Shown in pieces: positions 11,343 to 40,239 of a stretch of 64,000 nucleotides of DNA (positions are counted from its first letter, which is position 1; every line of letters begins with the position of its first letter). Below the pieces are notes generated by a model that saw nothing but the letters and a program-made list of their open reading frames with translations, was not told the origin of the DNA and ran no database searches. The stretch is taken from assembly GCA_021788015.1 (NCBI GenBank), contig JAJYLD010000001.1, positions 145,581 to 209,580 of the forward strand, given 5' to 3'. The translations under genes were made by a program, and so were the position numbers. Source of the DNA: a bacterium. Its GTDB lineage: Bacteria; Patescibacteriota; Patescibacteriia; Patescibacteriales; JAKAJF01.

Positions 11343-11575
11343 GTCCCGTTAGAAGCCGCGATCGCTTCAATGGGAATTGGTTAAATTTACAGGAGGACTT
11401 TAATAGCTTATGCAGGTTTATGCAATCAATTTCTTGATCGCGATCCCGATATTACAAATCCTGTCGGATTTGGCTACGGGACAAGTTCTATCGCACAAAA
11501 CTTATTTTTAACCACGTCTCGCCCCGTAGTCACCGAGTTTACGAGGTGTACTACCGGGGTCTGCTTCTAACGGGA
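11343..11575 (+). other. about 230-nt GC-richer structured element closed by a 12-13-bp helix (candidate ncRNA, regulatory leader or MITE)
   Basis: CCCGTTAGAAGC (11344-11355) is the exact reverse complement of GCTTCTAACGGG (11563-11574). Internal hairpins include CGCGATC/GATCGCG, AAATCC-TGTC-GGATTT, TCCCG/CGGGA and CCCCGTAGT...ACTACCGGGG. The 3' arm abuts the ATG of the next gene. Confidence 0.45.
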
Positions 11576-24520: not shown

Positions 24521-26056
24521 ATGAAGAAAATTTGGCGAAAAAATTTTGAAATCAAAAAAACATGCTATCAGCTTCTCGCTGAATCGGCGGAATCATTTTT
24601 CGTTTTTCAGAAACCGACTTTAAATAAATATTATTTAAAAGAAGGCGTAATGGTTTCTGAAAACGGAGATAATATCGGGAGTTATTTTGTCAAAAATGAA
24701 TTGCGTGATTTGATTAAAAATACTTTGGATGCAATTATTAAAAATCCTAAAAGAGTGCATGGAATTCATGAAAAGGCTATTAAATATAATAAAGATTTCT
24801 TTTTAGAACTGAAAAAGGCGGAAAAAATAAATTTGGAAAATTTATCAAAAACAGAACTCATTAAATTATATAAACATCTCTTTAAATGGCTTCAGCTTGG
24901 CCATGGTTACAGTTTACCTACAACATGGTTCATTGATTCGGATGGAGAAGATCTGAGTCATTATTTATTGGATTTAATTGGAAAGAAGGTTAAGGAGAAT
25001 AAGTTAAATATCAGCGCGCCCGAAGCTTTCAGTATTTTAACTACCCCTGCCCAGGAAAGCATGGCTCAAGCGGAAGAAAAAGAAATGTATGCTATTTTAA
25101 AATTTATTCAAGAAAATAATGCGGCTCTAAAAGTTTTTTCCAACAAGAATCGGGAATCCATAGAAAGCAATTTGGTAAAAATTGATAAAAAATTAAGAAA
25201 CAAAATTATAAATCATTTTAAAAAATGGAGATGGATGCCGTATACTTATGTGGGTCCGGCCTATAATTTGGATTATTATTTGGACATCTGGTCTTCTCTT
25301 TTAAAACAGAAATCCGATCCTGATGAAGAAATAAAAAAATTGGAGTTAGCGAAAAAAGAAACATTAATAAGAAGAGCGGGGTTAATAAAAGATTTGTATT
25401 TGTCACAAAAAGAAAAAGCAATTTTTGATTTGGCCGCCGAAATTGTTTGGCTTAAAGGTCTACGCAAAGAAGTTTCGTTTTTTGGTTTTTACGTAATCGA
25501 CAAAGTTCTAAAGGAAATGGGTAAGAGAGCGGGATTCTCCTTGATGCAGATGAAATATGTCGCCTTTAACGAGATGAAAAATTTTGAAAATTTTTCTTCG
25601 GATGAATTGAATTCAAGAATAAAATTTAGTGTCATTTATTCCAAGTCGGGAAAATTTAAAATTTTCAACGGAAAAAAAGCGAAAGATTTTTTAAAAAAAC
25701 AAAATTTTGAGAAAATTATTTTAAAAGATTCCGGAGAATTAAAAGGAACATGCGCTTACGTCGGAAGGGCAAGAGGTGCGGTCAAGATTATAAATACTCC
25801 CGAAGAAATGGGGAAAATGCAGAAAGGTGACATAATGGTTGCACACACAACATTTCCCAGTCTTGTACCCGCCATGAAAAAAGCGGCGGCGATTGTAACC
25901 GATGATGGAGGAATTACTTGCCATGCCGCAATTGTAGCGCGAGAGTTAAGAACGCCGTGCATTGTCGGTACAAAAAATGCGACTTACATTTTGAAAGACG
26001 GCGATAAAGTTGAAGTCGATGCGGAAAAAGGGATAATTAAAAAAGTAAATTCTTGA
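24521..26056 (+). CDS. S1: divergent helical N-domain fused to a C-terminal PEP-utilizer phosphohistidine swivel domain
   Basis: C-terminus GRARGAVKIINTPEEM...GDIMVAHTTFPSLVPAMKKAAAIVTDDGGITCHAAIVARELRTPCIVGTK...VEVDAEKGIIKK. N-domain landmark KKWRWMPYTYVGPAY. No ATP-grasp or TIM-barrel motifs seen. Confidence 0.85.
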   Translation: MKKIWRKNFEIKKTCYQLLAESAESFFVFQKPTLNKYYLKEGVMVSENGDNIGSYFVKNELRDLIKNTLDAIIKNPKRVHGIHEKAIKYNKDFFLELKKAEKINLENLSKTELIKLYKHLFKWLQLGHGYSLPTTWFIDSDGEDLSHYLLDLIGKKVKENKLNISAPEAFSILTTPAQESMAQAEEKEMYAILKFIQENNAALKVFSNKNRESIESNLVKIDKKLRNKIINHFKKWRWMPYTYVGPAYNLDYYLDIWSSLLKQKSDPDEEIKKLELAKKETLIRRAGLIKDLYLSQKEKAIFDLAAEIVWLKGLRKEVSFFGFYVIDKVLKEMGKRAGFSLMQMKYVAFNEMKNFENFSSDELNSRIKFSVIYSKSGKFKIFNGKKAKDFLKKQNFEKIILKDSGELKGTCAYVGRARGAVKIINTPEEMGKMQKGDIMVAHTTFPSLVPAMKKAAAIVTDDGGITCHAAIVARELRTPCIVGTKNATYILKDGDKVEVDAEKGIIKKVNS

Positions 26057-26114
26057 GATAAAAATACTAATTTAAACATGTTTTTGCGATAAACAAAAAT
26101 ATGTTTGCAAATTT

Positions 26115-26564
26115 ATGAACCTGGATCAACAAAACTTGCCCGGAGTTACTCCGGAGATCGAACTTAATTCTTTGATAGAAAAGACAAAATCTGCGGTGGA
26201 GGAGATAAGAAGATCTGTTAAATTTGGTAATCTTCCCGAAAAAAAAGATTGGCCGAATCTTTTAAATGAACTTAAAGAAGGGGCGGGCAGACTTCAATGG
26301 CTGGAAGATGTACATGGCTTATCTACCACAGATAAGGTGCCGAGTTGGCCACAAGGTATTCGTCGTTATTTATTGGAAGCTTTGGGCGAATTATTCATAC
26401 CCAAAAAAATGACGGATGAGGAAAGAGTAAAATTAGAAAATCTTATAAGAAAATATAGAGCAGCTTTGAGTCAATGGCAGACGGAATTAGTGGAAAGATT
26501 ATGCCATAAGAATGGAATAGAAAGGGAAGTAATAGAGCCTGAGTATTTCAAGGAACCGCTTTAA
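26115..26564 (+). CDS. hypothetical protein inside the swivel-domain array (149 aa, no swivel domain)
   Basis: Clean ORF between S1 and S2. No recognisable motif. Confidence 0.5.
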   Translation: MNLDQQNLPGVTPEIELNSLIEKTKSAVEEIRRSVKFGNLPEKKDWPNLLNELKEGAGRLQWLEDVHGLSTTDKVPSWPQGIRRYLLEALGELFIPKKMTDEERVKLENLIRKYRAALSQWQTELVERLCHKNGIEREVIEPEYFKEPL

Positions 26565-26576
26565 AAAAATTTCATT

Positions 26577-28016
26577 ATGAAAGCAGAATGGATTTCATTC
26601 GAATGGCCGGGTTATCATCTTTATCAGGCAATCGCGCCGATGGAGGCATGGGTGCATGATTTCGCGAAATACGATTGCCAAATTTCCAAAATGGTCGTTT
26701 CCTATTCAAGGGGCGCCACTTCTTTTTATTATTTAAAAAATGAATACGAAAGTTACGGCAAGAAATTTTTTGAAAAGGTGAAAAATAATCCCGCCTTGAT
26801 GTTTAAAGTCCTTGAAGAAGTCGACAAAACGGCGGAAGCCGTATTTAAGCTGGGTAAGAAATTCGCCTATGTCGATTTTAAAAAATTGAATGACAAAAAA
26901 ATTTTAAAAATACATAACCAGCTTTTTAAATTGGATGAAATTCTTTGGCGAAGGGGCCAAATCCAAAACCTTTTGGAGCTTCATAATAATTATTTAACCG
27001 AGCATATCAAGGGAATCCTAGAAGAAAAATTCGGAAAAAATAATGTAGTACAATATTTCGATTACCTCACTCGTCCTTCGTATAAAAGCATGTCAATCAG
27101 GCAGGACGAGGACTTCCTAAAAATGCTTAAAAAATATCGGCAAGGAGTAAAAGATAAATCGTTAATGATAAAAAATCACTGGAAAAAATATTCCTGGATG
27201 ATATACGGGTGGGCCGGGCCCGCTTTTGAAATAAAATATTTTGAAAATAATTTTAAGGAAGCGCTAAAAGCGAAAATAAATTACGTAAAAAGTAAATCCG
27301 ATATTAATAAAGATAAAGTCGCGGCAAAAACAAGGTTGTGGGTACTGTCAAAAATGGACGAAAAAGAAAAAAGACTCGCTGTTCTTCTCAGAACTTTAGT
27401 TGACATGAAATTAAAAAGAGTGGACGCCCATTCTCTAACCTTTTTTATTGCCGATAAGATAAATGCGGAAATCGCCAAAAGAAAATTTATTTCCGTAAAT
27501 CAGATTAGAACGGTTCCGGCGCTTGAGATGCGTAAATTAATGAGCGGTAAAATCACTAAAGAAGAAATGAATAGAGATTACGAATTCGTTTTATATTGGT
27601 TTGAAAAAGGCAAAAAAGTTAGAAAAATAAATGGCATCGAAGCGAAAGTGAAAATTACAAAAATTCTTGCAAGTATTCCAGGAGTAAAAAAATCCAATTT
27701 AATAAAAGGTGAAATGGCTTATGCCGGCAAGGTAAGAGGCAAAATTAAAGTTATTTTGGAACAAAAAGATTTTAGAAAATTTAAAAGGAATGAAATTTTA
27801 GTAACAAGAATTACCGATCCGTCCTATGTGCCTATAATGAAAATGGCGCAAGCCATAATTACCGATATCGGAGGGATAACCTGCCATGCCGCCATAGTTT
27901 CGAGAGAATTAAAAAAGCCCTGCGTAATCGGAACAAAAATCGCGACAAAAGTTTTGAAAGATGGCGATTTGGTCGAGGTGGATGCGGAGAAAGGAGTCGT
28001 AAAAATAATAAAATAG
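26577..28016 (+). CDS. S2: divergent N-domain plus PEP-utilizer swivel domain
   Basis: GKVRGKIKVI...EILVTRITDPSYVPIMKMAQAIITDIGGITCHAAIVSRELKKPCVIGTKIATKVLKDGDLVEVDAEKGVVKII. N-domain landmark KKYSWMIYGWAGPAF. Confidence 0.85.
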   Translation: MKAEWISFEWPGYHLYQAIAPMEAWVHDFAKYDCQISKMVVSYSRGATSFYYLKNEYESYGKKFFEKVKNNPALMFKVLEEVDKTAEAVFKLGKKFAYVDFKKLNDKKILKIHNQLFKLDEILWRRGQIQNLLELHNNYLTEHIKGILEEKFGKNNVVQYFDYLTRPSYKSMSIRQDEDFLKMLKKYRQGVKDKSLMIKNHWKKYSWMIYGWAGPAFEIKYFENNFKEALKAKINYVKSKSDINKDKVAAKTRLWVLSKMDEKEKRLAVLLRTLVDMKLKRVDAHSLTFFIADKINAEIAKRKFISVNQIRTVPALEMRKLMSGKITKEEMNRDYEFVLYWFEKGKKVRKINGIEAKVKITKILASIPGVKKSNLIKGEMAYAGKVRGKIKVILEQKDFRKFKRNEILVTRITDPSYVPIMKMAQAIITDIGGITCHAAIVSRELKKPCVIGTKIATKVLKDGDLVEVDAEKGVVKIIK

Positions 28017-28021
28017 TTTTT

Positions 28022-29038
28022 ATGAAAAAAATAGTTTTTCAAAAAAATTACACAAGAGATACGAGCTTGGTTGTCCAAAAGCTATGGTTCAAGGCGCATG
28101 ACAAAGCCATAAATGATTTTTTAAAAAGCAAAAAAGAAATTTTCGGCATCGATCACTTAAATAACGGCTCAATTGAGATTTGGGAAAATGCCGATTTATT
28201 AAAAAAACTAAAATCGATTTTGGTTAAAAAATCTTTTCAATCTAAAAATAAAATTTTTTCAATATTAAACAGGACAAAAATTGAAATGAAAGAATTTGAA
28301 AAACTTTGGAAAAGAAAATATTTATCCGATAGGAACGAGCTGGTTGCTTTTATAAATAAAGCCGAGAAAATGATGTATGCCAATTTACTTTATTCATATC
28401 TTTGTCTTGAGAAAGGCGCGGAAAAGGAAATTAAAAATTTGGCCGGCGAGCTTCGGGCCGCAGATCATTTTTTTGCGCATAGCGATAATCTTATAAGAAA
28501 TAGCATCAAAAAAATTTTTCCGTCCGCGAAAGATTTTGAAAATTGCATTACCATAAACGAAATAAAAAACAATAAAATTCCATCGGCGGAAATTTTAAAA
28601 AAACGTTTATCTTCTTTTTTTCAGGATTCGGGAAAAGAAAAATTTTTAGGAGATTTGCGAACATTTCAAGCTAAACATCCGGAATATATTTTTATAAACG
28701 GCGATTCAAAAAACTCGAGGATTATAAAAGGCCAAATCGCCAACAGAGGAAAAATTACGGGAAGAGTTAAGATTGTCAGGCGCAACAATGACATGCTTAA
28801 AATTAAAAAAGGAGATATAGTGGTTTCTCCGATGACTACTCCGGCAATAGTGTCGGGTTTAAAAAAAGCTTCCGGAATTGTGACTGACGAAGGCGGAATG
28901 CTTTGTCATGCGGCTGTGATTTCACGCGAATTAAATATTCCATGCGTCATCGGAACAAAGATTGCGACGAAAGTTTTAAAGGACGGCGATTTGGTTGAAG
29001 TAGACGCGAATAAAGGGGTAATAAAAATTCTCAATTAA
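28022..29038 (+). CDS. S3: short (338 aa) N-domain plus PEP-utilizer swivel domain
   Basis: GKITGRVKIV...GDIVVSPMTTPAIVSGLKKASGIVTDEGGMLCHAAVISRELNIPCVIGTKIATKVLKDGDLVEVDANKGVIKILN. Confidence 0.85.
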   Translation: MKKIVFQKNYTRDTSLVVQKLWFKAHDKAINDFLKSKKEIFGIDHLNNGSIEIWENADLLKKLKSILVKKSFQSKNKIFSILNRTKIEMKEFEKLWKRKYLSDRNELVAFINKAEKMMYANLLYSYLCLEKGAEKEIKNLAGELRAADHFFAHSDNLIRNSIKKIFPSAKDFENCITINEIKNNKIPSAEILKKRLSSFFQDSGKEKFLGDLRTFQAKHPEYIFINGDSKNSRIIKGQIANRGKITGRVKIVRRNNDMLKIKKGDIVVSPMTTPAIVSGLKKASGIVTDEGGMLCHAAVISRELNIPCVIGTKIATKVLKDGDLVEVDANKGVIKILN

Positions 29039-29073
29039 TTTTTTTCTGGATTCCCGCCTGCGCGGGAATGACA
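29039..29073. repeat. GAATGACA-family intercistronic hairpin
   Basis: TTTTTTTCTGGATTCCCGCCTGCGCGGGAATGACA, with stem ATTCCCGC/GCGGGAAT. Ends 5 nt before the next ATG. Confidence 0.8.
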
Positions 29074-29078
29074 AAGAT

Positions 29079-30575
29079 ATGAAACAAAAAAATCCAAAAT
29101 ATTTAAATGATAATGATCCATGGATTCTGGCGGAAGATATACCGGATATAGATTTTCAGTTTGCGCAAATCTGGCTTTCCTCATTTGCCAATGACCTTAG
29201 CCGTTCGTGCGGAAAAAATTATAAAAAAATTGTTTGTGTTTTTAACGGCTTAAATCTCAAGTTTTATTATGGAGATAAGGATTCCGATGATTTTGCAAAC
29301 CATTTATTAAATAAAATCGTAAAAACTCCCGCCTTCGGAAATAAAATTAATAAGAATATAAGAATTTTTTCCGATAAGCTTAAAAAAAATTCCGAGGAAA
29401 TTACGGGGAAAGCTTTGGTAAAAATGAGTAATGGAGAATTGATTTCTTTTTATAATAAGCTAGATAAATTGCATACGGAATTATATATCTGGGGATGGTT
29501 GCCGAATGCCGCAGATATGTTCCATGTAAACTTTACAAATTATTTAAAAAATTCGCTTGCGAAAAAACTTCCGGAAGAAGAGTTGAATAAAGCCTTGGTT
29601 CTGCTTTCAAATAGCGAAGAAAAAAGCGTTTTTAATCTTGAGCACGAATCTTTTCTGAAAATTATTTCTTTAAAACAAAATGGCAAAAGTCAAAAAGAAA
29701 TCGATAAAGCCATTTCTAAACATCTCAAGCGCTATTTTCACCTTAAGCATTTATGGATAGGGAAGGACGGAGTTTATGATTATGATTATTACGTTAGCGA
29801 AATAAAAAAATTCATTAAATCAAAAGAAAATGCGGGGAAATTATTGAAAAAAGAAAATACGATTTTTAAGGATGCTTTGCGCGAAAAGAACGCATTGATT
29901 AAGAAACTAAAACTGACAAAAAAGGAAATAGAAATTTTTGATGTTTATGCCGAATTCGCCGTAACCAAGGCTTATCGAAGAGATGCGCAACTCTTTTGGG
30001 CCTACAAAATGGACTTTGTTTTTCAAGAGCTTTCGAGGCGTTTAAATTTGTCCATAATTGAAACGCGATTTATGTTCCCGAATGAAATTGCGGATTCATT
30101 GCGTAATGGAGTAAAAAAGAAATTGAGAGAGGAAATAAAAAAGAGAACAAAACATTGTGTTTACTATGTTGAAAAAGGAATCGATAAAATGCTTTATAAT
30201 AAAGAAGCGAAAGAATTTGAGAAAAAATTGGAAACAAAGCAGGATAATGATATAAAAGAATTTTCTGGCCAGACCGCGTGCCTGGGCGAAGCGAAAGGAT
30301 ATGTAAGAGTTATAAACTCCGTAACGGAAATCAAAAAAATGGAAAAGGGAGATATTCTTGTCAGTATCGCCACCAATCCGGATATTGTGCCGGCTATGAA
30401 GAAAGCGGCCGCGATTATAACCGAGCAGGGCGGAATCACTTCGCACGCCGCGATTGTTTCACGCGAATTAAATATTCCATGTGTCATCGGAACAAAGATT
30501 GCGACGAAGGTTTTAAAGGACGGCGATTTGGTCGAGGTTGACGCAAATAAGGGAGTTATAAAAATTCTTAATTAA
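29079..30575 (+). CDS. S4: divergent N-domain plus PEP-utilizer swivel domain
   Basis: GEAKGYVRVI...GDILVSIATNPDIVPAMKKAAAIITEQGGITSHAAIVSRELNIPCVIGTKIATKVLKDGDLVEVDANKGVIKILN. N-domain landmark KRYFHLKHLWIG. Confidence 0.85.
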   Translation: MKQKNPKYLNDNDPWILAEDIPDIDFQFAQIWLSSFANDLSRSCGKNYKKIVCVFNGLNLKFYYGDKDSDDFANHLLNKIVKTPAFGNKINKNIRIFSDKLKKNSEEITGKALVKMSNGELISFYNKLDKLHTELYIWGWLPNAADMFHVNFTNYLKNSLAKKLPEEELNKALVLLSNSEEKSVFNLEHESFLKIISLKQNGKSQKEIDKAISKHLKRYFHLKHLWIGKDGVYDYDYYVSEIKKFIKSKENAGKLLKKENTIFKDALREKNALIKKLKLTKKEIEIFDVYAEFAVTKAYRRDAQLFWAYKMDFVFQELSRRLNLSIIETRFMFPNEIADSLRNGVKKKLREEIKKRTKHCVYYVEKGIDKMLYNKEAKEFEKKLETKQDNDIKEFSGQTACLGEAKGYVRVINSVTEIKKMEKGDILVSIATNPDIVPAMKKAAAIITEQGGITSHAAIVSRELNIPCVIGTKIATKVLKDGDLVEVDANKGVIKILN

Positions 30576-30628
30576 TTTTTTTCCGGATTTTTGCCGGAAG
30601 TTCATCCGCCTTGGCGGACGAAATGACA
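30575..30628. repeat. GAATGACA-family intercistronic hairpin (double-hairpin variant)
   Basis: TTTTTTTCCGGATTTTTGCCGGAAGTTCATCCGCCTTGGCGGACGAAATGACA. Confidence 0.7.
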
Positions 30629-30636
30629 TTAATTAT

Positions 30637-32169
30637 ATGAATCCAAAAAATGAAAAATGGTCGCATATAGCAAAAGAATATGTAGTAAGTTTATTCCCCA
30701 ATATTATGCTGGCGGAAGCTTTTATAAACGGAGTAAATAAATCAGCAGAAAAAAATTTAAAATTTTGGGCGCAGAGATATGAAGATAATTCATGCCAATA
30801 TCTTGCCAAAAAATCGGATTGGGCGAAAGTGAGCGGACCTTTTGCGAAAAAAGTTTTAGGCAGCCCGGAATTTTTAGGCGTGATCATGAAAAAAATGCAA
30901 GAGAATTTAAAAACATCTCTTGCTTTTGCCGCAAAAGTTAATCGCATGAATTTAAAGAATAGCGCGAACGCGGATTTATTAAAATTGTATAATGAGTTTA
31001 ACCGTTTAAATAAAGACGTGTATGATTATGGACTTGCCTTGGTACTTTTGGATTTTCAAGAAACTACATATATTTCAGATGCGCTTTCCAAATATTTAAA
31101 AGGAAAGGTTGAGGCGGAAAAATATTCGGATTATTTTTCAATATTGACGACGACTCCGAAAAGAACTGCGGCGCGAGAAGAGGAAATTAGCCTGTTGAAA
31201 ATAATTTCTAAAATAAAAAATAAACAAAAATTGTTAAATGCTTTTCTAAATAAATCAGCGGATGAATTGGCCGAAAATTTTTTAAAATTAGATAAAAATA
31301 TTCATAAGGAAATTTTACTGCATGCAAAAAAATACGCCTGGACAACCTATGTTTACGAAGGCCCGGGTCAGACATATAATGATTTTATTTTGACCGTCAA
31401 AGAATTTTTATCAAGAAACATTAATCCTGAATTGAAATTGAAAGAAATTTTTGAAAGTGAAAAAAATTTAAAAACAAAACAGGCAGAGTATTTAAAAGCG
31501 CTTAAGCCTGATAAATATAATAAAAATTTGATTAAATTGTCGCGAGATGTCGCTTTTGTAAAATTTTGGCGCAGAGAACAGCAATCCCGTTCTTACTATC
31601 TGATTGAACCCCTTTTGAAAGAAATGGCTCGACGACTAAACTTATCGGTGAAGCAAATAAGATTTCTACTTCCGGAAGAATTGAATGGAGCTTTAAAGGG
31701 CAAAGAAATTGATTTGGAAAAAATAAACAGAAGAATTAAATTATGCATCTTGTCATGCGAAAACGGAAGGGGGGTAAAATTACTTGAAGGGAAAAATGCC
31801 GAAAAATTTCTTAAAACGGTTGAAAAAGAAAAAATTGATTATAATTTGAAAGAACTAAAGGGGCAAACCGCATGCCCGGGATACGCCAAAGGCAAGGCCG
31901 TAATCGTCAATGTGCCTGATGATATGAAAAAAATGGGCGATGGGAATATTTTAGTTTCGTTTTCCACCAATCCCAACCTTATGCCGGCGATCAGAAAAGC
32001 ATCCGCGATTATTACGGACGAAGGCGGTTTGACTTGCCATGCCGCAATTGTTTCGCGCGAATTAAATATTCCTTGCGTAGTCGGGTTAAAAGTGGTTTCG
32101 AAAATAATAAAAGACGGAGAAACGGTTGTAGTGGATGCGAATAAAGGAGTGATTAAAAAATTAAAATAA
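30637..32169 (+). CDS. S5: divergent N-domain plus PEP-utilizer swivel domain
   Basis: GYAKGKAVIV...GNILVSFSTNPNLMPAIRKASAIITDEGGLTCHAAIVSRELNIPCVVGLK...VVVDANKGVIKKL. N-domain landmarks KKYAWTTYVYEGPG and LLKEMARRLNLSVKQIRFLLPEEL. Confidence 0.85.
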   Translation: MNPKNEKWSHIAKEYVVSLFPNIMLAEAFINGVNKSAEKNLKFWAQRYEDNSCQYLAKKSDWAKVSGPFAKKVLGSPEFLGVIMKKMQENLKTSLAFAAKVNRMNLKNSANADLLKLYNEFNRLNKDVYDYGLALVLLDFQETTYISDALSKYLKGKVEAEKYSDYFSILTTTPKRTAAREEEISLLKIISKIKNKQKLLNAFLNKSADELAENFLKLDKNIHKEILLHAKKYAWTTYVYEGPGQTYNDFILTVKEFLSRNINPELKLKEIFESEKNLKTKQAEYLKALKPDKYNKNLIKLSRDVAFVKFWRREQQSRSYYLIEPLLKEMARRLNLSVKQIRFLLPEELNGALKGKEIDLEKINRRIKLCILSCENGRGVKLLEGKNAEKFLKTVEKEKIDYNLKELKGQTACPGYAKGKAVIVNVPDDMKKMGDGNILVSFSTNPNLMPAIRKASAIITDEGGLTCHAAIVSRELNIPCVVGLKVVSKIIKDGETVVVDANKGVIKKLK

Positions 32170-32170
32170 T

Positions 32171-33649
32171 ATGAGATGGACAAAAATTTGGTCTGATAGG
32201 CCATATCCGCCTTTTCTAATGGACCTTGTAACTGGCGCAACTGTGCAAGGATTAAAAAAGATATTTCCGGAAAGCGAAATACGACAAGGCGTGAATTACT
32301 GGAAGAACGCTTCTTCGTCTTATTATTATCCCGAAAATGAACTTAATGTAACAATGGGAAAAATTGCAAAAAAGGCCATTAAGAATCCAAAATTTTTATT
32401 AAATTTTTTTCAAAAAGGATTTGTCCTTTCCAAAGAACTGCGAAAATTTATCGAAAAAAAGGATCTGTCACGTTTAGATAAAAAAAGAGACAAAGAATTA
32501 TTAAAAATAGCAGATGAGGCTTCAAAGAAGTTTTTCAATTTTTATTCCTATGGCACGGTCGCATCTTTGCTTGGTTACACGACTGAAAATCCGATTTATT
32601 CAAAAATGGATACTATTGTAAAAATTAAAGGAAGGGGGCACAAGAAAATTCAGCAATATGTCGAAGCATTAACCAATCCGCCGAAAAGATTGAAAATTCA
32701 TGAACTCGAATTGGAAACGCTCGAAATCGCCGAAAAGGTGAAACGCATAGGATTAAAAACTAAGGCGCAAATATCAAAAAAATTTCAAGATGAATTGGAT
32801 AAACTTGTTGAAAAATTCGCATGGATGTCATTTGATTTTTGCGATTCTATTTTCTGGGATCGCGATCATTTCGCAAAATTAGTAGTAGAAAAAATTAATA
32901 GCGGAATAAGAAAAAGAATTAGTTTTTTAATTGATTACGAAAAAAACACGACTAAGCATTTTATTTCGGCATCTAAGAAAATGAAGCTGAATAATGAAGA
33001 AGTGAAAATTTTTAAATTAATCGGTAGCTTGGGATATTATAAATGGCTGAGAGAATACGAATTTCAAAAAGCTTTTTTCCTCTTTAAACAGGTTCAGGAC
33101 GAGTTCGGTCGCCGTATCGGACTTACAACTTTAGAATCGAAGTTTTTATTACCAGACGAGTATAAAAAGGCATTAACAAATAAAAAATTTTATAAAAAGT
33201 TGATTAAAAATCGGATGAAAGAGCTATTGATAGTTAATAAAAGGAATGCCAGGGTTATATTGGAAGGCAAAAAGGCGAAGAAAGAATTTTCTAAAATTGA
33301 AAAAGGGGCAGAGTTCAAGTTTGACGGAGCTGAAATAAGGGGTAATCCGGCAAGTTCCGGTTATGCGAAAGGGAAAGTTAAAATTATAAACAGTTCAAAA
33401 GAAATGAGAAAGATGAACAAAGGAGACATTTTAGTTTCTCAGGCGACAACACCGGAAATAATTTCCGCCATGAAAAAGGCGGCGGCGATAATTACAAATG
33501 AAGGCGGCATTACATCGCACGCCGCCATTATTTCAAGAGAACTAAAGATTCCCTGTGTAATCGGAACAAAGATAGCCGCACAAGTTTTAAAGGATGGCGA
33601 GGTGGTCGAGGTAGATGCGAATAAGGGAATAATTAAAAAGCTAGAATAA
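32171..33649 (+). CDS. S6: divergent N-domain plus PEP-utilizer swivel domain
   Basis: GYAKGKVKII...GDILVSQATTPEIISAMKKAAAIITNEGGITSHAAIISRELKIPCVIGTK...VEVDANKGIIKKLE. The start is 1 nt after the S5 stop. Confidence 0.85.
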   Translation: MRWTKIWSDRPYPPFLMDLVTGATVQGLKKIFPESEIRQGVNYWKNASSSYYYPENELNVTMGKIAKKAIKNPKFLLNFFQKGFVLSKELRKFIEKKDLSRLDKKRDKELLKIADEASKKFFNFYSYGTVASLLGYTTENPIYSKMDTIVKIKGRGHKKIQQYVEALTNPPKRLKIHELELETLEIAEKVKRIGLKTKAQISKKFQDELDKLVEKFAWMSFDFCDSIFWDRDHFAKLVVEKINSGIRKRISFLIDYEKNTTKHFISASKKMKLNNEEVKIFKLIGSLGYYKWLREYEFQKAFFLFKQVQDEFGRRIGLTTLESKFLLPDEYKKALTNKKFYKKLIKNRMKELLIVNKRNARVILEGKKAKKEFSKIEKGAEFKFDGAEIRGNPASSGYAKGKVKIINSSKEMRKMNKGDILVSQATTPEIISAMKKAAAIITNEGGITSHAAIISRELKIPCVIGTKIAAQVLKDGEVVEVDANKGIIKKLE

Positions 33650-33656
33650 TAAAAAA

Positions 33657-34262
33657 ATGCAAAAAAATAAAATCAAACTTATCATTCTTGACGCTTACGG
33701 TCCGGTTATTACCGGCGGCTATCCGGCAACCTGCAAATATTTAGGGAAAATATTTAAAAAAAACTGGAAAGATGTATTTCAGATAGTTTATCGGAAATAT
33801 TTTAATATGGCGGCGGAAAGAAAGATAACACAACAGGAAGCCTGGGAAGAAGCGATCAAAGAACTGAATATGCCCATAAGCGTAAAAAAATTAAAAAAGA
33901 TCCATTACGATTTTATGGATCTGAACAAGCCGGTTATAAAGTATGTGAAACAAAATAATTTAAGCGGTGCAAAAATTTTGCTTTTAAGTAAAAACACGAG
34001 AAGCCAGTTTTATGATGTTAATAAAAAAACAGGATTCAGAAAAGAATTTAAATATATTATAAACACATGGGAATTGGGGCTGCCGAAAGCGAGTAAGGAA
34101 ACAATGGAATTGATCAAGCAAAAATTCAAAGTGCAATCGGAAGAGATTTTATATACCGATGACCAGGAAGAAAATTTAATCGAGGCGAAAAAGATGGGCA
34201 TAAAAACTATTTTTTATCAAAATTTTAATCAATTTAAAAAAGAGTTTAAAAAATATGAATAA
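33657..34262 (+). CDS. HAD superfamily hydrolase-like protein (DAYG-type motif I)
   Basis: Motif I IILDAYGPV, motif II LLSKNT, C-terminal ILYTDDQEENLIEAKKMGIKTIFY (motifs III/IV). Overlaps the next gene by 8 nt. Confidence 0.6.
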   Translation: MQKNKIKLIILDAYGPVITGGYPATCKYLGKIFKKNWKDVFQIVYRKYFNMAAERKITQQEAWEEAIKELNMPISVKKLKKIHYDFMDLNKPVIKYVKQNNLSGAKILLLSKNTRSQFYDVNKKTGFRKEFKYIINTWELGLPKASKETMELIKQKFKVQSEEILYTDDQEENLIEAKKMGIKTIFYQNFNQFKKEFKKYE

Positions 34263-34572
34263 AATTAGCGGGGTCGTTGCGTCTTCCGGCAAAGCGAAAG
34301 GAACCGCACGAATCGTTTTGGATCAAAATGAATTTGAAAATTTAAAACAAGGTGAAATTTTGATTACCAACCTTAAACCGGATCATGTTTTGGTTTTAAA
34401 AAAATCGGGAGCGATTGTAACGGATGAGGGGGGCATAACGTCGCACCTGGCAAAAGCGGCGAGAGAATTGAAAAAGCCGTGCATTGTAAATACGGGAAAC
34501 GGAACGCAGGTTTTTAAAACCGGCGATGCGATTGAAGTTGATGCGGAAAAAGGAATAATTACAAAATTATAA
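34255..34572 (+). CDS. S7: stand-alone PEP-utilizer swivel domain protein (105 aa)
   Basis: GKAKGTARIV...GEILITNLKPDHVLVLKKSGAIVTDEGGITSHLAKAARELKKPCIVNTG...IEVDAEKGIITKL. No N-terminal extension. Confidence 0.8.
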   Translation: MNKISGVVASSGKAKGTARIVLDQNEFENLKQGEILITNLKPDHVLVLKKSGAIVTDEGGITSHLAKAARELKKPCIVNTGNGTQVFKTGDAIEVDAEKGIITKL

Positions 34573-34589
34573 GATCTTTGAAAAAGAAG

Positions 34590-34630
34590 AAAGCCGGCCC
34601 TTGCGTGTTTTTCACGTAGGTACCGGCTTT
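34590..34630 (-). terminator. long hairpin terminator (minus strand; possibly bidirectional)
   Basis: AAAGCCGG...CCGGCTTT with inner CGTG-AAAAA-CACG. The minus strand continues TCTTCTTTTTC. Confidence 0.55.
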
Positions 34631-34658
34631 GTAAACTAGACCGTTCTGCCTACCTTGC

Positions 34659-35225
34659 TTAGGGAGCCGGAATAGTCCTGGGATCGTGGACCTCGATGGA
34701 GCCGTCATCCTGGAGGAAGAAGTCGAGGTACTCCATCTCTTTAAGGGACGGAATTCCTTCGTAGCCCAGGGCTATTGTGGCGAGAGGGATGATGGGGTCG
34801 TGTCCGAGGGCAAGACCGAAACCATTGTCCGGCATAGCATCGAACATTTTCTTTACCCCAGTCAAGGCATCGTTTGCCCAGATAGTAATTTGCTCACCTG
34901 TGTGGCCCGCCATGTAGACGGCCTCGATGTTGGTTTTGCCGGCATTTACAGCGGCCTTAAACCCATTATTCACCATTATCGCAAAGAGCTCTTCGGTTCC
35001 GATCTCGGCGACGGGCGTATGGACCCTGACGCCGGGCTGGCAGCCGACTTGGCAGATGTAGGCCAGGGCGGTCTGCACCGTCCGGTATATGCCATAGAAA
35101 ATGTCAGTGTATTTTGCCCCAATTGCTTTTTCCTGAACATATGCAATACCCTTGGGACCAATGGTGTTGTTGGCCCCGTCCTTAATTGAGTGTCTTACAT
35201 ACCTGATTTTTTTAACTGGTTTCAA
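34659..35225 (-). CDS. histidine phosphatase superfamily-like protein, high GC, antisense to the array
   Basis: IRYVRHSIKDG (RHG-like motif), YRTVQTALAY (RAxQTA-like motif), LALGHDPIIPLA (second His). TTG start with AAGGAGG 8 nt upstream. Composition is much GC-richer than the flanks. Confidence 0.55.
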   Translation of the reverse strand: MKPVKKIRYVRHSIKDGANNTIGPKGIAYVQEKAIGAKYTDIFYGIYRTVQTALAYICQVGCQPGVRVHTPVAEIGTEELFAIMVNNGFKAAVNAGKTNIEAVYMAGHTGEQITIWANDALTGVKKMFDAMPDNGFGLALGHDPIIPLATIALGYEGIPSLKEMEYLDFFLQDDGSIEVHDPRTIPAP

Positions 35226-35413
35226 ATTCTAAACCTCCTTAAATTTCCAGCATTTCTATCCGCTCAGCGGATTACTAGCAAATGTCTGGATTGCTATTTC
35301 TGTTTTTTTAGCAATTGTGAAAAGATCAAATCATATTAACATACCACGAAATCATAAATACGTCAAGTATTTTAAAATAAAAGTATTAATTTAAGCTAAA
35401 TTTAAACAAAAAT

Positions 35414-36361
35414 ATGCCAGAAAAATTTACAAAAGCATTTAAAGAACTTACAAAGAATAACACTGATATTGCCGGTGGAAAGGGCGCTTCCTTGGGCGAG
35501 ATGACTAACGCGAAAATTCCGGTTCCGCCCGGATTTGTAATCTTGGCACCTGCTTTTGATAAATTTTTAGAGGAAACGGATTTGGGAGTAGAAGTCGAAT
35601 CGATTTTAAAGAAATTAAATTTTAAAGAAATACATTCAGTTTCAAAAGCTTCGGAATTGATCCGAGACAGGATAGATGGAGCCAGAATTCCCGATGATAT
35701 AAAAAAGTTGATTCTGGCGGATTTTAAAAAAATGAAAACAAAATTTGTCGCCGTCCGGTCGAGTGCGACGGCAGAGGATTCGTCGGTCGCCTCCTGGGCG
35801 GGAGAACTTGAAAGTTATTTGGATACAACCGAAAAATCGCTTTTAGAGAATGTAAAAAGATGCTGGTCATCGTTATTTACTCCGCGCGCGATTTTTTATC
35901 GTCATGAAAAGAAATTACACAAAACAAAAGTGAGCGTGGCTGTCGTCGTTCAGCAAATGGTCGAATCGGAAATTTCCGGAATTGCGTTTACGGTTCATCC
36001 GGTTACACGTGATAAAAACCAAATGATCATCGAGGCCGGTTGGGGTCTCGGCGAGGCGATTGTCTCCGGACAGGTTACTCCCGATGCTTACGTTTTGGAC
36101 AAAAGAGATTTTTCGATCATGGACATAAATGTTTCCGCGCAAGAAATGATGATTACCCGAAAGCCGGGCGGCGGAGTGAAGCATGTGAAAGTTTTAAAAG
36201 CAAAAAAGGAAAAGCAAAAATTAACCGGAAAGCAAATCATCGACCTCGCAAAAATTTGCTCGACAATCGAAAAGCATTATAAAAAACCGCAGGATATCGA
36301 ATGGGCCTTCGCGAAAGGAAAATTTTATATCACTCAATCGCGGCCGATAACGACATTGTAA
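35414..36361 (+). CDS. stand-alone PPDK_N / PEP synthase-type ATP-grasp nucleotide-binding domain protein
   Basis: GGKGASLGEM, IPVPPGFVI, VAVRSSATAEDS, WAGELESYL, VAVVVQQMV, ISGIAFTVHPVT, IIEAGWGLGEAIVSG, QDIEWAF..FYITQSRPITTL. Ends where the swivel domain begins in full-length enzymes. Confidence 0.88.
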   Translation: MPEKFTKAFKELTKNNTDIAGGKGASLGEMTNAKIPVPPGFVILAPAFDKFLEETDLGVEVESILKKLNFKEIHSVSKASELIRDRIDGARIPDDIKKLILADFKKMKTKFVAVRSSATAEDSSVASWAGELESYLDTTEKSLLENVKRCWSSLFTPRAIFYRHEKKLHKTKVSVAVVVQQMVESEISGIAFTVHPVTRDKNQMIIEAGWGLGEAIVSGQVTPDAYVLDKRDFSIMDINVSAQEMMITRKPGGGVKHVKVLKAKKEKQKLTGKQIIDLAKICSTIEKHYKKPQDIEWAFAKGKFYITQSRPITTL

Positions 36362-36383
36362 AATATTAAGTTAATGAAATTTT

Positions 36384-37829
36384 ATGGCGCAAAAATGGTT
36401 TACTTTAAAAAGAAACGCAACATTGCATCATGTAGTTCCTATCTCTAAAAGTATTGTCACAAACCTTAAAGATTTAATTGGCATAGGTTTTAACAAGCAT
36501 GCATGTATTTTTAAAAACGGCGAGCAACTAAGTTGGAATTATGAAGTAAAGGGCTTGGATCAAGTTGCAAATTTTATGTTGCAAAATTTAAACTATGAAT
36601 TTAATTATAATATAGAAAAAAAATGGAGATTTTATGCCAATACTTTAGAAAAAATTTTTAAAAAATTAGAAAAAATCAAAATAGATAAAATTTCGGATAA
36701 AGTATTAAACCAAATTTATAGTGATTTGATGCATAATCTTGAAATTGAGAGCGCGTATGGAACATTGAGTGATTTTTTGAGCAGCGATTTGATTAAAAAT
36801 AAAGTTATCGAGCATTTAAAAAATATTCCGAATATCAAATCAAGTGATTTAGATAGAATGTTGGGAGTTGCTACGATTTCAATTTTTAAATCTCCTTATG
36901 CTCGCGAGCAAGAAGAAATTTTTAAATTAGCTATTAAAAAAGGAAGCGGAGAAAATATAAACAAAAAAATAGAAGAGCATGCAAACAAGTATTGGTTTAT
37001 TCAAAACGATTACAAAGATTCTTTTAAATTAACCGACGATTATTTTCGTAGCCAAATTAAATCACTTTTAAAGAATAAAAATATTTTAAAAGATTATGAG
37101 GAATCGATAAAAAAACCGCTTAGCTTGGTGAGTGAAAAAAAGAAATTAATTCAGACTGCGAAAAAAGCGGATATTGGATTTTATGAATTGTTAAGGATGA
37201 TCGATATCCATGTAAAATTATGGGATTTAAAAAAAGTAGTGATGCAAAAGTCTTTCTATTATTTAGATTTACTTTTGAAAGAAATCGCTCTAAGGTTCAA
37301 CTTATCATTTGAAGATATAAAATGGCTGTCTCCCGAAGAGGTATTATTGTTATTTAAAAATAAAAAAATCAAAAATATAAAATCCAGAAAAAATAGTTGC
37401 ATTTTGCTTGTACAAACCGGAAGTATTAATATTTTAACCGGCGTAAAAGCAAAGCAAATTATTAAAAAAGTGGAAGGAAAAATTCCGAAGGATTTAAAAG
37501 AATTAAAAGGGCAAATAGGAAATCTCGGCAAAATAAAGGGAAGGGTAAAAAAAATTTTTGATCCGAAGAATGGAAAAATTAATCAGGGCGAGATATTAGT
37601 AACTGGAATGACAACCCCGGATTTTATTTCATTAATGAAAAAGGCCGGAGCTTTTATTACCGACGAGGGAGGAATTACATGTCATGCCGCGATTGTGGCA
37701 CGAGAACTTAACAAGCCCTGTGTCATTGGCACTAAAATCGCAACGAAAGTTTTAAAAAACGGCGATCTGGTCGAAGTTGACGCGAATAAAGGGGTAGTAA
37801 AAATTTTAAAACATGGAAAAAATAAATAA
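36384..37829 (+). CDS. S8: divergent N-domain plus PEP-utilizer swivel domain
   Basis: GKIKGRVKKI...GEILVTGMTTPDFISLMKKAGAFITDEGGITCHAAIVARELNKPCVIGTKIATKVLKNGDLVEVDANKGVVKILK. N-domain landmark LLKEIALRFNLSFEDIKWLSPEEV. Confidence 0.85.
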   Translation: MAQKWFTLKRNATLHHVVPISKSIVTNLKDLIGIGFNKHACIFKNGEQLSWNYEVKGLDQVANFMLQNLNYEFNYNIEKKWRFYANTLEKIFKKLEKIKIDKISDKVLNQIYSDLMHNLEIESAYGTLSDFLSSDLIKNKVIEHLKNIPNIKSSDLDRMLGVATISIFKSPYAREQEEIFKLAIKKGSGENINKKIEEHANKYWFIQNDYKDSFKLTDDYFRSQIKSLLKNKNILKDYEESIKKPLSLVSEKKKLIQTAKKADIGFYELLRMIDIHVKLWDLKKVVMQKSFYYLDLLLKEIALRFNLSFEDIKWLSPEEVLLLFKNKKIKNIKSRKNSCILLVQTGSINILTGVKAKQIIKKVEGKIPKDLKELKGQIGNLGKIKGRVKKIFDPKNGKINQGEILVTGMTTPDFISLMKKAGAFITDEGGITCHAAIVARELNKPCVIGTKIATKVLKNGDLVEVDANKGVVKILKHGKNK

Positions 37830-37840
37830 AATTAAGAATT

Positions 37841-38773
37841 ATGAAATTTAATAAATTAGTTTTATACGATTTAAAAACGAGTCCGCTTGAAAAAGACTTT
37901 GTTGATAAGCTGAAAAAATTTTCAAAATCAGTAAAAATTGTATTTGCCAAAGGTGAATATGAAAGAGCTTTGAAACCGAAAGATTTAGAGGGAGTAGACG
38001 CGTTAATAATTAGGCCTTTCGATTTTTATAAAGATGATTTATTTAAAAAATCAAATTTAAAATATATAGGCACGATGCATACGGATATTTCTCATTTCAA
38101 TAAAAATTTTTTAAAGGAGAAGGGAATTACCATAACGAATGTCGCCGGATATTCGACGGAAGCAGTTGCCGAATTGACTATTTCGGCTCTTTTAAACATA
38201 TCGAGACGAACTCATGAAGGCATGAATTATGTTAAAAATGGTCATTGGGGATTCGAAAAATTCATGGGATGGGAATTAAAAGGAAAAACTTTGGGAATTA
38301 TCGGATTGGGAAATATCGGGAAAAGAGTGGCTGAGATTGCGCAAGCATTCGGGTTGAAAATAATTTATTTTTCACCGACAAGAAAAAAAGAATTGGAAAA
38401 AGTGGGCATTAAATACAAAACATTGGAGATTTTATTAAAAGAAAGCGATATCGTAAGCTTGCATTGTTCCTTGAATGAAAAAACAAAAAATATTTTAAAT
38501 AAATCGAATTTGAAATTATTGAAGCATGGAGCCGTGCTGTTAAATTCCGCGCGTTCTGAGCTGGTTGATTTAGGCGCGTTTTATGAATTATGCAAAAGCA
38601 AAAAGATTTCCGCATGGTTTGAAGCCATTGAAGATGAAAAAATAAGAAATAAATTTAGAAAATTGGACAATGTTTTTCTTACGCCTCATTTCGGCTGGAT
38701 GACAATAGAGGCGCAGCAAAGATTAAGAGAGGCCACTTTAGAAAATATTGAGAATTTTTTAAAACGAAGTTAA
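37841..38773 (+). CDS. D-isomer-specific 2-hydroxyacid dehydrogenase family protein
   Basis: NAD fold GKTLGIIGLGNIGKRVA, SDIVSLHCSLNEKT, LLNSARSELVD, LTPHFGW (catalytic His region). Confidence 0.85.
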   Translation: MKFNKLVLYDLKTSPLEKDFVDKLKKFSKSVKIVFAKGEYERALKPKDLEGVDALIIRPFDFYKDDLFKKSNLKYIGTMHTDISHFNKNFLKEKGITITNVAGYSTEAVAELTISALLNISRRTHEGMNYVKNGHWGFEKFMGWELKGKTLGIIGLGNIGKRVAEIAQAFGLKIIYFSPTRKKELEKVGIKYKTLEILLKESDIVSLHCSLNEKTKNILNKSNLKLLKHGAVLLNSARSELVDLGAFYELCKSKKISAWFEAIEDEKIRNKFRKLDNVFLTPHFGWMTIEAQQRLREATLENIENFLKRS

Positions 38774-38809
38774 TTTTTTTCTGGATCCCGGATCAGGTTC
38801 GGGATGACA
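38774..38809. repeat. GAATGACA-family intercistronic hairpin
   Basis: TTTTTTTCTGGATCCCGGATCAGGTTCGGGATGACA, with stem ATCCCG/CGGGAT. Confidence 0.75.
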
Positions 38810-38814
38810 AAAAT

Positions 38815-40239
38815 ATGGAAAAAATACCAAAATATTTTTCAAATCTGCGATGCGAATTTACGCGACCGCATTCTGTTCAGCGGGATGAATTTGTGGCTTT
38901 GTCTTGCTCGATTCCGGGGAAAATGCGCATGGCTTCGATACCATATAAATTAGGAGCCAGAGCTATAAATTTTGATAAAGATGACGCGAAAATTTGTTAT
39001 GAAAAAATCATTAGAGGAATGATGAAAAATTATTCCCAATATGAAAAAATATATAAAAACTCAACAGAGGATTTGCACAAGGCGTCAAAAGCCGTCGCAA
39101 AATCTATCAAATTAACTAACAAGGAAAAAGCTAAAATTTTTCGCTGCTGGCTAAAAGCGCAAAAAAATTTTTTTATTCCAGTGGTTGCGCCCTTTGCGGT
39201 TGAATACACTCTTGACGATCAATGCCGAAAATTATTAAAGAACCGATTCGGAAATAGGGCGGAAGAAATTTTTTCAATTATTTCTTCTCCGACTAAAATT
39301 AATTTTTATCAAAAAATGCGTTTGGATATAGATAAAACTGTAATTTCAAAAAGAATAAATTATACTTCGATAGAAAAATTAATTGAAAAATATTCTTGGT
39401 ATGGTGAGTATTCATATGTCGAACCGCTTTTCGATGAAAAATATTTTCAAAAAGAGCTGGCTAAATTAACCAAAGAAAAAGCGATTGAAGAAAAGAATCA
39501 TATCCTCGGAGATGTTCGGAAAAATATAAAAGCATTTGTCGCTTTGCAGAAGAAAATAAAAGATCCGAAAATAAAAATAATGGCCAAAGTTTTGAATGAT
39601 TATACTTTTCTTCGAACAGATAGAGTCGAAAATTTTAAACTTGCGCAATCACGGGTACGCACCCTCTTTAAATTTATTGAAAAAGAATTGAATGGAAAAA
39701 CAAAAAACAAATGGACGCATTTTGATATAGCTAATTTCACTAATCAGGAAATACTCGATTTTCTTGAAAAAGGAAAAATTCCAAATAAAAAAGAAATAAA
39801 GAAGCGGGTTAGTCATAATTATATTTATTATTTCGACACCGAACCCCATTTTATTTACGATTCCAAAATTATTAAGGAGGCTCAAAAAATAATTGATGAA
39901 TCTGAAAAGAAAAATCAAGAAATAAAAGGTTTGATCGCTTTCAATGGAAATGTAAAGGGTAAAGTCGTTATGGTGTCTAGTAAAAATGATTTGTCAAAAG
40001 TAAAAAAAGGAATGGTTTTAGTTGCAAAGACAACTATGCCTGATTATACTTACGCCATGAGATTAGCGGCAGGATTTGTAACGGAAGAAGGAGGAATAAC
40101 ATCGCATGCCGCAATCATTGCTCGTGAACTTAAGAAACCTTGCATAGTCGGTACAAGAAATTGTACTAAAGTTCTAAAAAATGGGGATATGGTCGAAATT
40201 GACGCAAACAAGGGGGTTGTTAAAATTTTAAAGAAATAA
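38815..40239 (+). CDS. S9: divergent N-domain plus PEP-utilizer swivel domain
   Basis: GNVKGKVVMV...GMVLVAKTTMPDYTYAMRLAAGFVTEEGGITSHAAIIARELKKPCIVGTR...VEIDANKGVVKILKK. N-domain landmark EKYSWYGEYSYVEP. Confidence 0.85.
   Translation: MEKIPKYFSNLRCEFTRPHSVQRDEFVALSCSIPGKMRMASIPYKLGARAINFDKDDAKICYEKIIRGMMKNYSQYEKIYKNSTEDLHKASKAVAKSIKLTNKEKAKIFRCWLKAQKNFFIPVVAPFAVEYTLDDQCRKLLKNRFGNRAEEIFSIISSPTKINFYQKMRLDIDKTVISKRINYTSIEKLIEKYSWYGEYSYVEPLFDEKYFQKELAKLTKEKAIEEKNHILGDVRKNIKAFVALQKKIKDPKIKIMAKVLNDYTFLRTDRVENFKLAQSRVRTLFKFIEKELNGKTKNKWTHFDIANFTNQEILDFLEKGKIPNKKEIKKRVSHNYIYYFDTEPHFIYDSKIIKEAQKIIDESEKKNQEIKGLIAFNGNVKGKVVMVSSKNDLSKVKKGMVLVAKTTMPDYTYAMRLAAGFVTEEGGITSHAAIIARELKKPCIVGTRNCTKVLKNGDMVEIDANKGVVKILKK

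Follow-up and report, generated by a model that had tools for sequence, protein, structure and literature searches.

The DNA stretch analysed here comprises 64,000 nucleotides of contig JAJYLD010000001.1 (assembly GCA_021788015.1) from a member of the Patescibacteriota, and is referred to below as the window. It contains an array of plus-strand genes for proteins with swivel domains, within which a single gene, designated HP, is read from the minus strand. HP had no annotation; it adds a further variant to a known superfamily, the histidine phosphatases, in a genomic role that is new and consistent. From sequence profiles and a structural model, its product appears to be a true branch-1 histidine phosphatase, diverged so far that it lies below the detection of current family models, and it is probably catalytically active. 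Comparison of related loci points to a built-in partner of the kinase cluster and not to a recent foreign insertion. The explanation that we tentatively favour is that HP removes the phosphate installed by the array, most likely from small-molecule products or intermediates.

The motifs VRHS, RTVQTA and GHD, which a sequence-only reading of the window had named as landmarks of the branch-1 histidine phosphatases, were all found in the HP translation, at residues 10-13, 48-53 and 141-143. HP on its own gave no match to Pfam models (for PF00300 not even at E ≤ 10) or to NCBIfam models, those for the cofactor-dependent phosphoglycerate mutases (dPGM) included, and no relevant PDB match with phmmer. 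A word-indexed search returned 22 metagenomic homologs, all without annotation, and a scan of 1.84 billion representative sequences with a hidden Markov model (HMM) recovered 340 relatives at E ≤ 1e-3 (representatives at 50% identity). Among the matches listed, most were of 160-260 aa, with a few shorter fragments; the longer relatives carried no signal peptides and no domain fusions, and their N-terminal extensions resembled mis-called starts. PF00300, which had been proposed as a check on the assignment, stayed below threshold: six of the 22 relatives gave colinear matches, the best at 17.8 bits against the Pfam gathering threshold of 21.7 bits.

A model of HP was computed with AlphaFold on the 22-sequence alignment (pLDDT 94.6, pTM 0.90) and compared with the PDB using Foldseek, which gave 116 matches at E ≤ 1e-3 (best E 1.2e-6, TMq up to 0.66). 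The best 50 of the 116 all belong to the histidine-phosphatase superfamily, so that the structural comparison proposed by the sequence-only reading came out in its favour; they include RosC, a PhoE-like PGAM, TIGAR, PGAM5, a phosphoserine phosphatase, CobC, Sts-2, dPGM and Alr0221, and small-molecule enzymes are in the majority. When profiles were searched against the PDB, the 22-sequence profile found nothing relevant. The 112-sequence profile matched the putative SixA 4hbz (E 2.3e-5), TIGAR (1.9e-4), Alr0221 (3.4e-4) and PhoE (3.7e-4, aligned over residues 5-154), and the motifs RH, RTxQT and GHxP were in register between this profile and the PDB matches in the HMMER alignments. With hhalign, the RTxQT motif of HP was aligned to 'RAEQT' of E. 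coli SixA, at a probability of 4%, which is not significant. Membership of the histidine-phosphatase superfamily, as claimed from the motifs, is borne out by the fold, the profile-level similarity and the conserved tetrad described below.

Residue conservation was counted over 161 diverse relatives. The RH pair directly follows strand E3-11; R11 was present in 147 and H12 in 149 of the relatives, R48 in 140, H142 in 147 and P144 in 150, and the full R11/H12/R48/H142 tetrad was found in 134 (codon positions and predicted roles are listed in Table 1). In the region of the candidate general acid, residues 73-79, a D or E occurs somewhere in 152 of the 161. Conserved positions specific to the family are K15, G76, N99, A102 and H108. 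Several of these, including N99 and H108, lie within or near a helical insertion at residues 78-105 (three extra short helices), which comes after strand 3 and ahead of the helix that leads into strand 4. In this superfamily the cap subdomains that set small-molecule specificity sit at this position.

Nine of the array genes around HP encode PF00391 'PEP-utilizers' proteins; a single one encodes a PF01326 PPDK_N protein, and the others are for a HAD hydrolase and for a 2-hydroxyacid dehydrogenase (Table 1). The ATP-grasp protein consists of PPDK_N only and aligns to the models of PEP synthase and RPH over their N-terminal 310 positions. The AlphaFold model of one array protein (30637-32169; pLDDT 94.0) matched the RIF-binding and swivel domains of RPH-Lm (E 2e-13, 470-590 alignment columns, TMq about 0.6), and the sequence match of the array protein to RPH residues 701-864 agreed with the structural one. 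In the catalytic-His motif of the swivel domain, GGxT[S/C]H, T466 and H468 were invariant in 59 sequences. The short swivel gene and the HAD gene before it share 8 nt, the 5' end of the former overlapping the 3' end of the latter. Elsewhere in the window, two tandem cofactor-independent PGAM paralogs (iPGM_N + Metalloenzyme) are encoded at 9765-11336 and 11575-13149 on the plus strand.

Because the paralogs match the RIF-binding and swivel domains of RPH and the ATP-grasp is on a separate polypeptide, the array is best described, from sequence and models, as a two-component small-molecule dikinase of the RPH-like kind with many paralogs. The characterised examples HpeHI, CreHI and PpsAB have the ATP-grasp on one protein and the swivel and substrate domains on the other (PMC12167813), and the mechanism of RPH itself has been described (PMC4844700). 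The array proteins thus reproduce the RIF-binding and swivel domains of RPH (5fbs/5hv1) and the stand-alone PPDK_N its ATP-grasp; unlike RPH, the array spreads these domains over separate polypeptides and is massively paralogous, and unlike HpeHI, which is a 1:1 pair, it has a single ATP-grasp to as many as eight or nine swivel paralogs. There are more than 2,000 homologs of the array proteins, with 'PEP-utilizing enzyme [Patescibacteria]' as the only name given; where the organism is named, it belongs to the Patescibacteria (Falkowbacteria, Doudnabacteria, Buchananbacteria, Parcubacteria). In the literature, no paper was found on these arrays or on an associated histidine phosphatase.

The setting of HP was then compared between loci, which are designated by L numbers. 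The genomic context of eight HP homologs (35-70% identity) was alike throughout: all lie in such arrays and all are opposite to the swivel genes. A further homolog of 39% identity (L098) was found in the same arrangement, and a scan of GTDB species representatives gave one match, in a Candidatus Komeilibacteria metagenome-assembled genome arranged as in the window. The assignment of HP homologs to the Patescibacteria follows from this locus and from the names of the array-protein homologs. Every homolog of roughly at least 25% identity that was examined lay in a PF00391/PF01326 array, which upholds the functional tie to the phosphohistidine array that had been suggested from the window alone. 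A more distant homolog (L097:10001-10561, GCA_964424615.1), of 22% identity, is flanked by the genes for RNase Y and ClpP and belongs to no array; it carries degenerate motifs (VH for RH, and A in place of R48), yet it has a GC content of 0.56, against 0.38 for the locus, and a GGAGG Shine-Dalgarno (SD) sequence.

Independently of HP, 80 metagenomic loci were fetched with the stand-alone ATP-grasp as anchor and scanned with HMMs. HP reached at least 50 bits in 9 of the 25 loci with at least three swivel open reading frames (ORFs). It was antisense to the swivel and ATP-grasp genes in 28 of 28 occurrences (about 22 non-redundant loci), and in every occurrence its GC content exceeded that of the rest of the locus, by 0.04 to 0.22 (mean 0.14). 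The recurrent gene order was ...Sw-Sw-HAD-(short Sw)-HP(antisense)-Sw/ATP-grasp, where Sw is a swivel gene. In L098 and in 12 of 20 loci with HP, the HAD gene lay upstream of HP, either adjacent or one gene away, and the order HAD, short swivel, antisense HP recurred in L002 and L006. Between loci, HP proteins were 20-78% and ATP-grasp proteins 57-85% identical. The two divergences were correlated with a Spearman coefficient of 0.28, and L020 and L022 combine a close ATP-grasp with a distant HP subfamily; strict vertical co-evolution of HP with the ATP-grasp is only weakly supported at this value.

Arrays were also screened for antisense, GC-rich, SD-led ORFs. Besides HP, six proteins were recovered, five of them histidine-phosphatase-like (three above the PF00300 threshold and two below it); the remaining one, of L024, shows 'THG' as a degenerate motif and does not match PF00300. 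Relatives of the screen proteins were antisense in two further loci. With a broader profile, 16 of the 25 well-sampled arrays carried at least one histidine-phosphatase-like ORF. The 23 ORFs found in this way comprise 19 that are antisense with a GC excess and four on the sense strand with host-like GC (L033 and L040, which also match the HP2 family described next, and the weak, unassigned matches L045 and L087), and some arrays hold two antisense histidine-phosphatase genes. Arrays without HP proper carry diverged His_Phos_1 proteins in the antisense slot (Table 1). Those of L029, L035, L040, L047 and L078 are GC-rich and SD-led by construction, having been caught by the screen; that of L066 has a GC excess, and that of L075 was found through similarity alone.

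A second family with an RHG motif, HP2, is about 275 aa long, is encoded on either strand with host-like GC, and is absent from the window. In addition to the loci of Table 1 it is present in L028, L030, L040, L041, L043 and L080, and it gives weak matches to dPGM and acid-phosphatase models.

Apart from HP, no long ORF lies on the minus strand between 24.5 and 40.2 kb; in the 16-kb array it is the only minus-strand gene. Its GC content is 0.520 and its GC at third codon positions (GC3) 0.624, against a GC of 0.30-0.42 for the array genes and a window mean of 0.392. Its GC3 was the highest among the 53 window genes scored (z about 2.4-2.5). Codon usage has moved toward C- and G-ending codons alike, and the leucine codons (CTN 9 : TTR 1) show that the choice of codon family has shifted too. 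Since the array genes (GC 0.30-0.35, GC3 about 0.28-0.37) are AT-richer than the window's housekeeping genes, which have a GC of about 0.40-0.47, the local contrast of HP is exaggerated.

An SD match of at least 7 nt precedes only two of the 53 window genes, HP and the minus-strand gene at 13631-14485; 45 genes have no SD-like match and six a 4-nt match only, and their upstream regions are A/T-rich. Apart from these two genes the organism of the window is essentially SD-less. An SD also precedes the HP homolog in L002, L004, L006, L007, L011, L097 and L098, which is every locus checked, and is lacking from most neighbours; comparable sites were seen on few other genes (L002 5931, L004 6006, which is HP2, L004 11190 and a NUDIX gene of L098). 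The 13631-14485 gene, which has an AAGGAGG SD, a GC content of 0.526 and a GC3 of 0.58, gave a weak match to LCM/TIGR00027-type S-adenosylmethionine-dependent methyltransferases. The NUDIX gene (L098:11379-11813) has the same SD-led, GC-rich signature, and the two may represent a class of such genes in these genomes.

If the promoter-like site at 35366-35338 is used, HP has a 5' untranslated region of about 100 nt; consensus-like sites (TTGAC-16/17-TATAAT) also lie upstream of the HP homologs in L009, L014 and L098. No Rfam family matched the HP leader when 33.5-36.5 kb was scanned, and an alignment of nine HP upstream regions showed nothing conserved beyond the SD and promoter-like boxes, so the leader gives no riboswitch clue to an HP ligand. 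Downstream, a 41-nt imperfect hairpin (34630-34590) is followed by a U-run (-27.8 kcal/mol, z -2.64 against shuffles); this terminator is probably bidirectional, being shared by HP and the short swivel gene. The opposite strand and high GC of the gene, the strength and rarity of its SD and its own long-hairpin terminator had all been described in the sequence-only reading, correctly on each count.

In the mechanism that we propose, the stand-alone ATP-grasp would charge the swivel histidine of the many RPH-like paralogs, and each charged paralog would hand the phosphate to its own bound substrate. HP, expressed from its own promoter, SD and terminator, would be controlled independently of the kinases and probably act antagonistically to them. 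Through a predicted active site formed by R11, H12 (the nucleophile), R48 and H142, probably with E74 as acid, it would cleave the phosphomonoester bond of a small-molecule product or intermediate, or of several such compounds. That HP is a hydrolase, what it acts on, and that its regulation is antagonistic are what we infer in this scheme. We further speculate that convergent transcription and SD-dependent translation make the expression of phosphatase and kinases separately controlled and possibly mutually exclusive.

A small-molecule target is favoured on four grounds: the best structural relatives of HP are small-molecule enzymes; the insertion, with its conserved residues, sits at the cap position of the superfamily; HP evolves much faster than the ATP-grasp and the near-invariant swivel motif; and several diverged subfamilies, sometimes two per array, fill the slot, beside HAD, HP2 and NUDIX proteins. 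Slot proteins and substrate-binding domains are diverse in parallel, in contrast to the nearly invariant swivel. Such variety suits a range of small-molecule products better than one conserved His~P (phosphohistidine) target. The closest structural matches are RosC (9emu/8s6q), PhoE (1h2e/1ebb), CobC (6nru/6e4b) and TIGAR (3e9c/3dcy), with E about 1e-6 and TMq 0.5-0.66. These share the tetrad of HP and have their cap at the position of its insertion; HP differs in its low identity to them (10-17%), its shorter cap, a non-conserved acid residue, a score below the PF00300 gathering threshold and a context specific to dikinase arrays of the candidate phyla radiation (CPR).

NagD belongs to the HAD superfamily. 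A functional analogy to HP is offered by HpeD and HpeHI, where a phosphohydrolase gene likewise stands beside a split RPH-like dikinase: HpeD, which is encoded in the Hpe cluster, is NagD-like, with E. coli NagD as its closest relative, and dephosphorylates a downstream phospho-intermediate (PMC9618137). Unlike HP, HpeD is not a histidine phosphatase, and the CPR array has a HAD gene as well as HP.

Several observations weigh against product dephosphorylation. Position 74 is E in only 76 of the 161 relatives and G in 53, and about 17% of the relatives lack one or more residues of the tetrad; some of these may be non-catalytic binders or pseudo-enzymes. The best sequence-level PDB matches include the SixA-like 4hbz and 3f2i, and the 'GHxP' of HP aligns with the 'GHAP' of 4hbz. 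In the clade of the window HP is convergent with a stand-alone swivel, which could be a His~P carrier, and the HAD phosphatase of the array could itself be the product phosphatase, leaving HP another job. The antisense, GC-rich, SD-led signature is left without explanation by the product-phosphatase model.

A serious but unlikely alternative is that HP is a SixA-like phosphohistidine phosphatase, which would discharge the His~P or His~PP of the swivel domains or of the 105-aa carrier and so reset or throttle the whole dikinase array. SixA (E. coli b2340; TIGR00249), 4hbz and 3f2i (Alr0221) are, like HP, small single-domain branch-1 histidine phosphatases, and the RH(G/A/S), R-x-x-Q-T and G-H-x-P motifs align between the SixA-like structures and HP. 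The top profile match in the PDB is 4hbz, with Alr0221 third, one family member weakly matches TIGR00249, and the small size of HP (188 aa) and the GHxP alignment fit as well. HP is convergent with the stand-alone swivel in the window, L002 and L006, and its separate expression from the antisense strand would keep a futile ATP cycle in check. SixA is known to act on phosphocarrier His~P: it dephosphorylates NPr of PTS-Ntr as well as Ndk (PMC7948535, PMC6282199, PMC12934123), and HP likewise stands in a phosphohistidine-transfer setting.

Set against this, HP scores far below the SixA model cut-off of 74.5 bits: it gave no match to TIGR00249, and the best relative (P0019) reached 15.8 bits. The profile E-values of the SixA-like proteins and of TIGAR and PhoE are only about tenfold apart, and among the best 50 Foldseek matches the only SixA-like entry is Alr0221 (ranks 47 and 49), whereas the best are small-molecule phosphatases. 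SixA is a compact structure of about 160 aa that lacks a sizeable cap. E. coli SixA has 161 aa against 188 in HP, in which the insertion at 78-105, presumably longer than the corresponding segment of SixA, and the conserved K15, N99 and H108 are features of the family. HP evolves quickly while the ATP-grasp and the swivel motif are strongly conserved, the slot houses a set of diverged His_Phos_1 subfamilies, in places two to an array, and the short swivel partner is confined to the close clade of the window. No linkage of sixA to its targets is known; HP instead lies antisense inside dikinase arrays. A wider form of the same idea, which we regard as doubtful, is that the shared ATP-grasp charger, the swivel paralogs and the antisense phosphatases make up a reversible module, in which the antisense, GC-rich, SD-led design would be a control device and HP would discharge the His~P of swivel or carrier.

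Less probable again is a role for HP as a phospho-relay acceptor or mutase, in which H12 would take up phosphate, for instance from a swivel His~P, or as a remover of a regulatory phospho-Thr from the conserved swivel motif T-S/C-H. Among the members of the superfamily are mutases and protein phosphatases (PGAM5, for one) that use a phospho-His intermediate, and dPGM is primed on a histidine. The invariance of T466 and H468 is compatible with such a role, and the poorly conserved general acid would slow hydrolysis of the phospho-enzyme. We found no specific evidence for it. HP has no match to dPGM models, and the loci showed no PDRP/DUF299-type kinase. With two cofactor-independent PGAMs encoded in the window, glycolysis does not need HP as a dPGM.

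It is highly improbable that HP is a recently acquired foreign gene, inserted by chance and functionally unrelated to the array. Horizontal acquisition had been suggested by the sequence-only reading from composition, and HP does have the highest GC3 of the window with C- and G-shifted codons, a strong SD in a genome otherwise without them, and a divergence so weakly correlated with that of the ATP-grasp that exchange between arrays is possible. That composition did not prove to be a mark of recent import. About 22 non-redundant loci, with proteins of 20-78% identity, repeat the position, the antisense strand and the GC excess, which speaks against a chance insertion; the SD recurs at every locus checked, and no mobile-element genes lie beside HP in the window. 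Over 22 loci the GC of HP follows that of the host (Spearman 0.72, p 2e-4), and because it does so with a maintained offset, long residence under selection is indicated. High expression was rejected as a cause of the GC3 and SD, as the genes for HU, GroEL, ClpP, IF2 and HSP20 on the same contigs have ordinary GC3 and no SD.

The notion that the true gene is a 167-aa plus-strand ORF (34686-35189), which overlaps HP and is co-directional with the array, can be set aside, since 98 of 300 synonymous-codon shuffles of HP gave antisense frames at least as long, the frame is broken in L002, L004, L006 and L009, and HP itself has a conserved family and a high-confidence fold. The ORF is a by-product of HP composition and not a gene. 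An overlapping antisense gene is likewise out as the cause of the GC excess, the open frame being reproduced by shuffles and not conserved.

With these results the HP family, 340 representatives at 50% identity that had no Pfam or NCBIfam assignment, gains a fold, a predicted active site and a genomic context. The CPR 'PEP-utilizing enzyme' arrays become readable as putative split RPH-like dikinases with dedicated phosphatase partners, and would point to extensive, regulated phosphorylation of small molecules (or phosphocarriers) in organisms of minimal metabolism. The antisense, GC-rich signature in about 22 lineages, SD-led at every locus checked, bears on translation initiation and on gene-specific control of composition in the CPR, and illustrates that composition alone can mislead calls of horizontal gene transfer. 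Should HP discharge swivel or carrier His~P, a dikinase system would for the first time be seen to have a phosphohistidine phosphatase of its own; should the signature be a control device, the expression of kinase and phosphatase would be mutually exclusive.

Table 1. Features of HP and its array in the window, and of related phosphatase genes at other loci (L numbers).
Feature	Position	Strand	Remarks
HP coding sequence	34659..35225	-	188 aa, TTG start; divergent protein of predicted branch-1 histidine-phosphatase fold
R11-H12 codons, RH(S) motif	35190..35195	-	H12, predicted phospho-accepting nucleophile; aligns to RH of 4hbz
R48 codon, 'RTxQTA' motif	35082..35084	-	predicted second phosphate-binding Arg; aligns to 'RTRQT' of 4hbz
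E74 codon	35004..35006	-	candidate general acid, end of strand 3 (inferred)
H142 codon, 'GH[DS]P.I' motif	34800..34802	-	predicted second catalytic His; aligns to 'GHAPTI' of 4hbz
HP Shine-Dalgarno site TAAGGAGG (AAGGAGG)	35234..35240	-	spacer of 8 nt to TTG
Promoter-like TTGACG-17-TATGTT, extended TG	35338..35366	-	consensus match only
HP terminator hairpin and U-run	34580..34630	-	between HP and the convergent short swivel gene
Array	24521..40239	+	eight 'RIF-binding-like domain + swivel' paralogs plus accessory genes
Array paralog starts	24521, 26577, 28022, 29079, 30637, 32171, 36384, 38815	+	RIF-binding-like + swivel
HAD-family hydrolase	33657..34262	+	PF13419, PF00702; commonest HP neighbour
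Stand-alone swivel, 105 aa	34255..34572	+	PF00391, E 9e-20; convergent with HP
Stand-alone ATP-grasp (PPDK_N)	35414..36361	+	PF01326, E 3e-98; divergent from HP
Diverged His_Phos_1 in antisense slot, arrays without HP proper	L035:8201-8845, L047:9243-9872, L066:9000-9731, L075:4458-5210		
Diverged His_Phos_1 in antisense slot, arrays without HP proper	L078:8260-8973, L029:9033-9695, L040:3322-3933		
HP2	L004:6006-6860, L009:331-1158, L013:3374-4195		array member; AAGGAG SD in L004

With PADLOC, no known defence-system protein was found among HP, the array protein, PPDK_N, the HAD protein, the short swivel and the methyltransferase. Within or beside related arrays, an AbiEii toxin-like gene (L006:5141-5968) and a Fic/RhuM gene (L004:985-1974) were observed.

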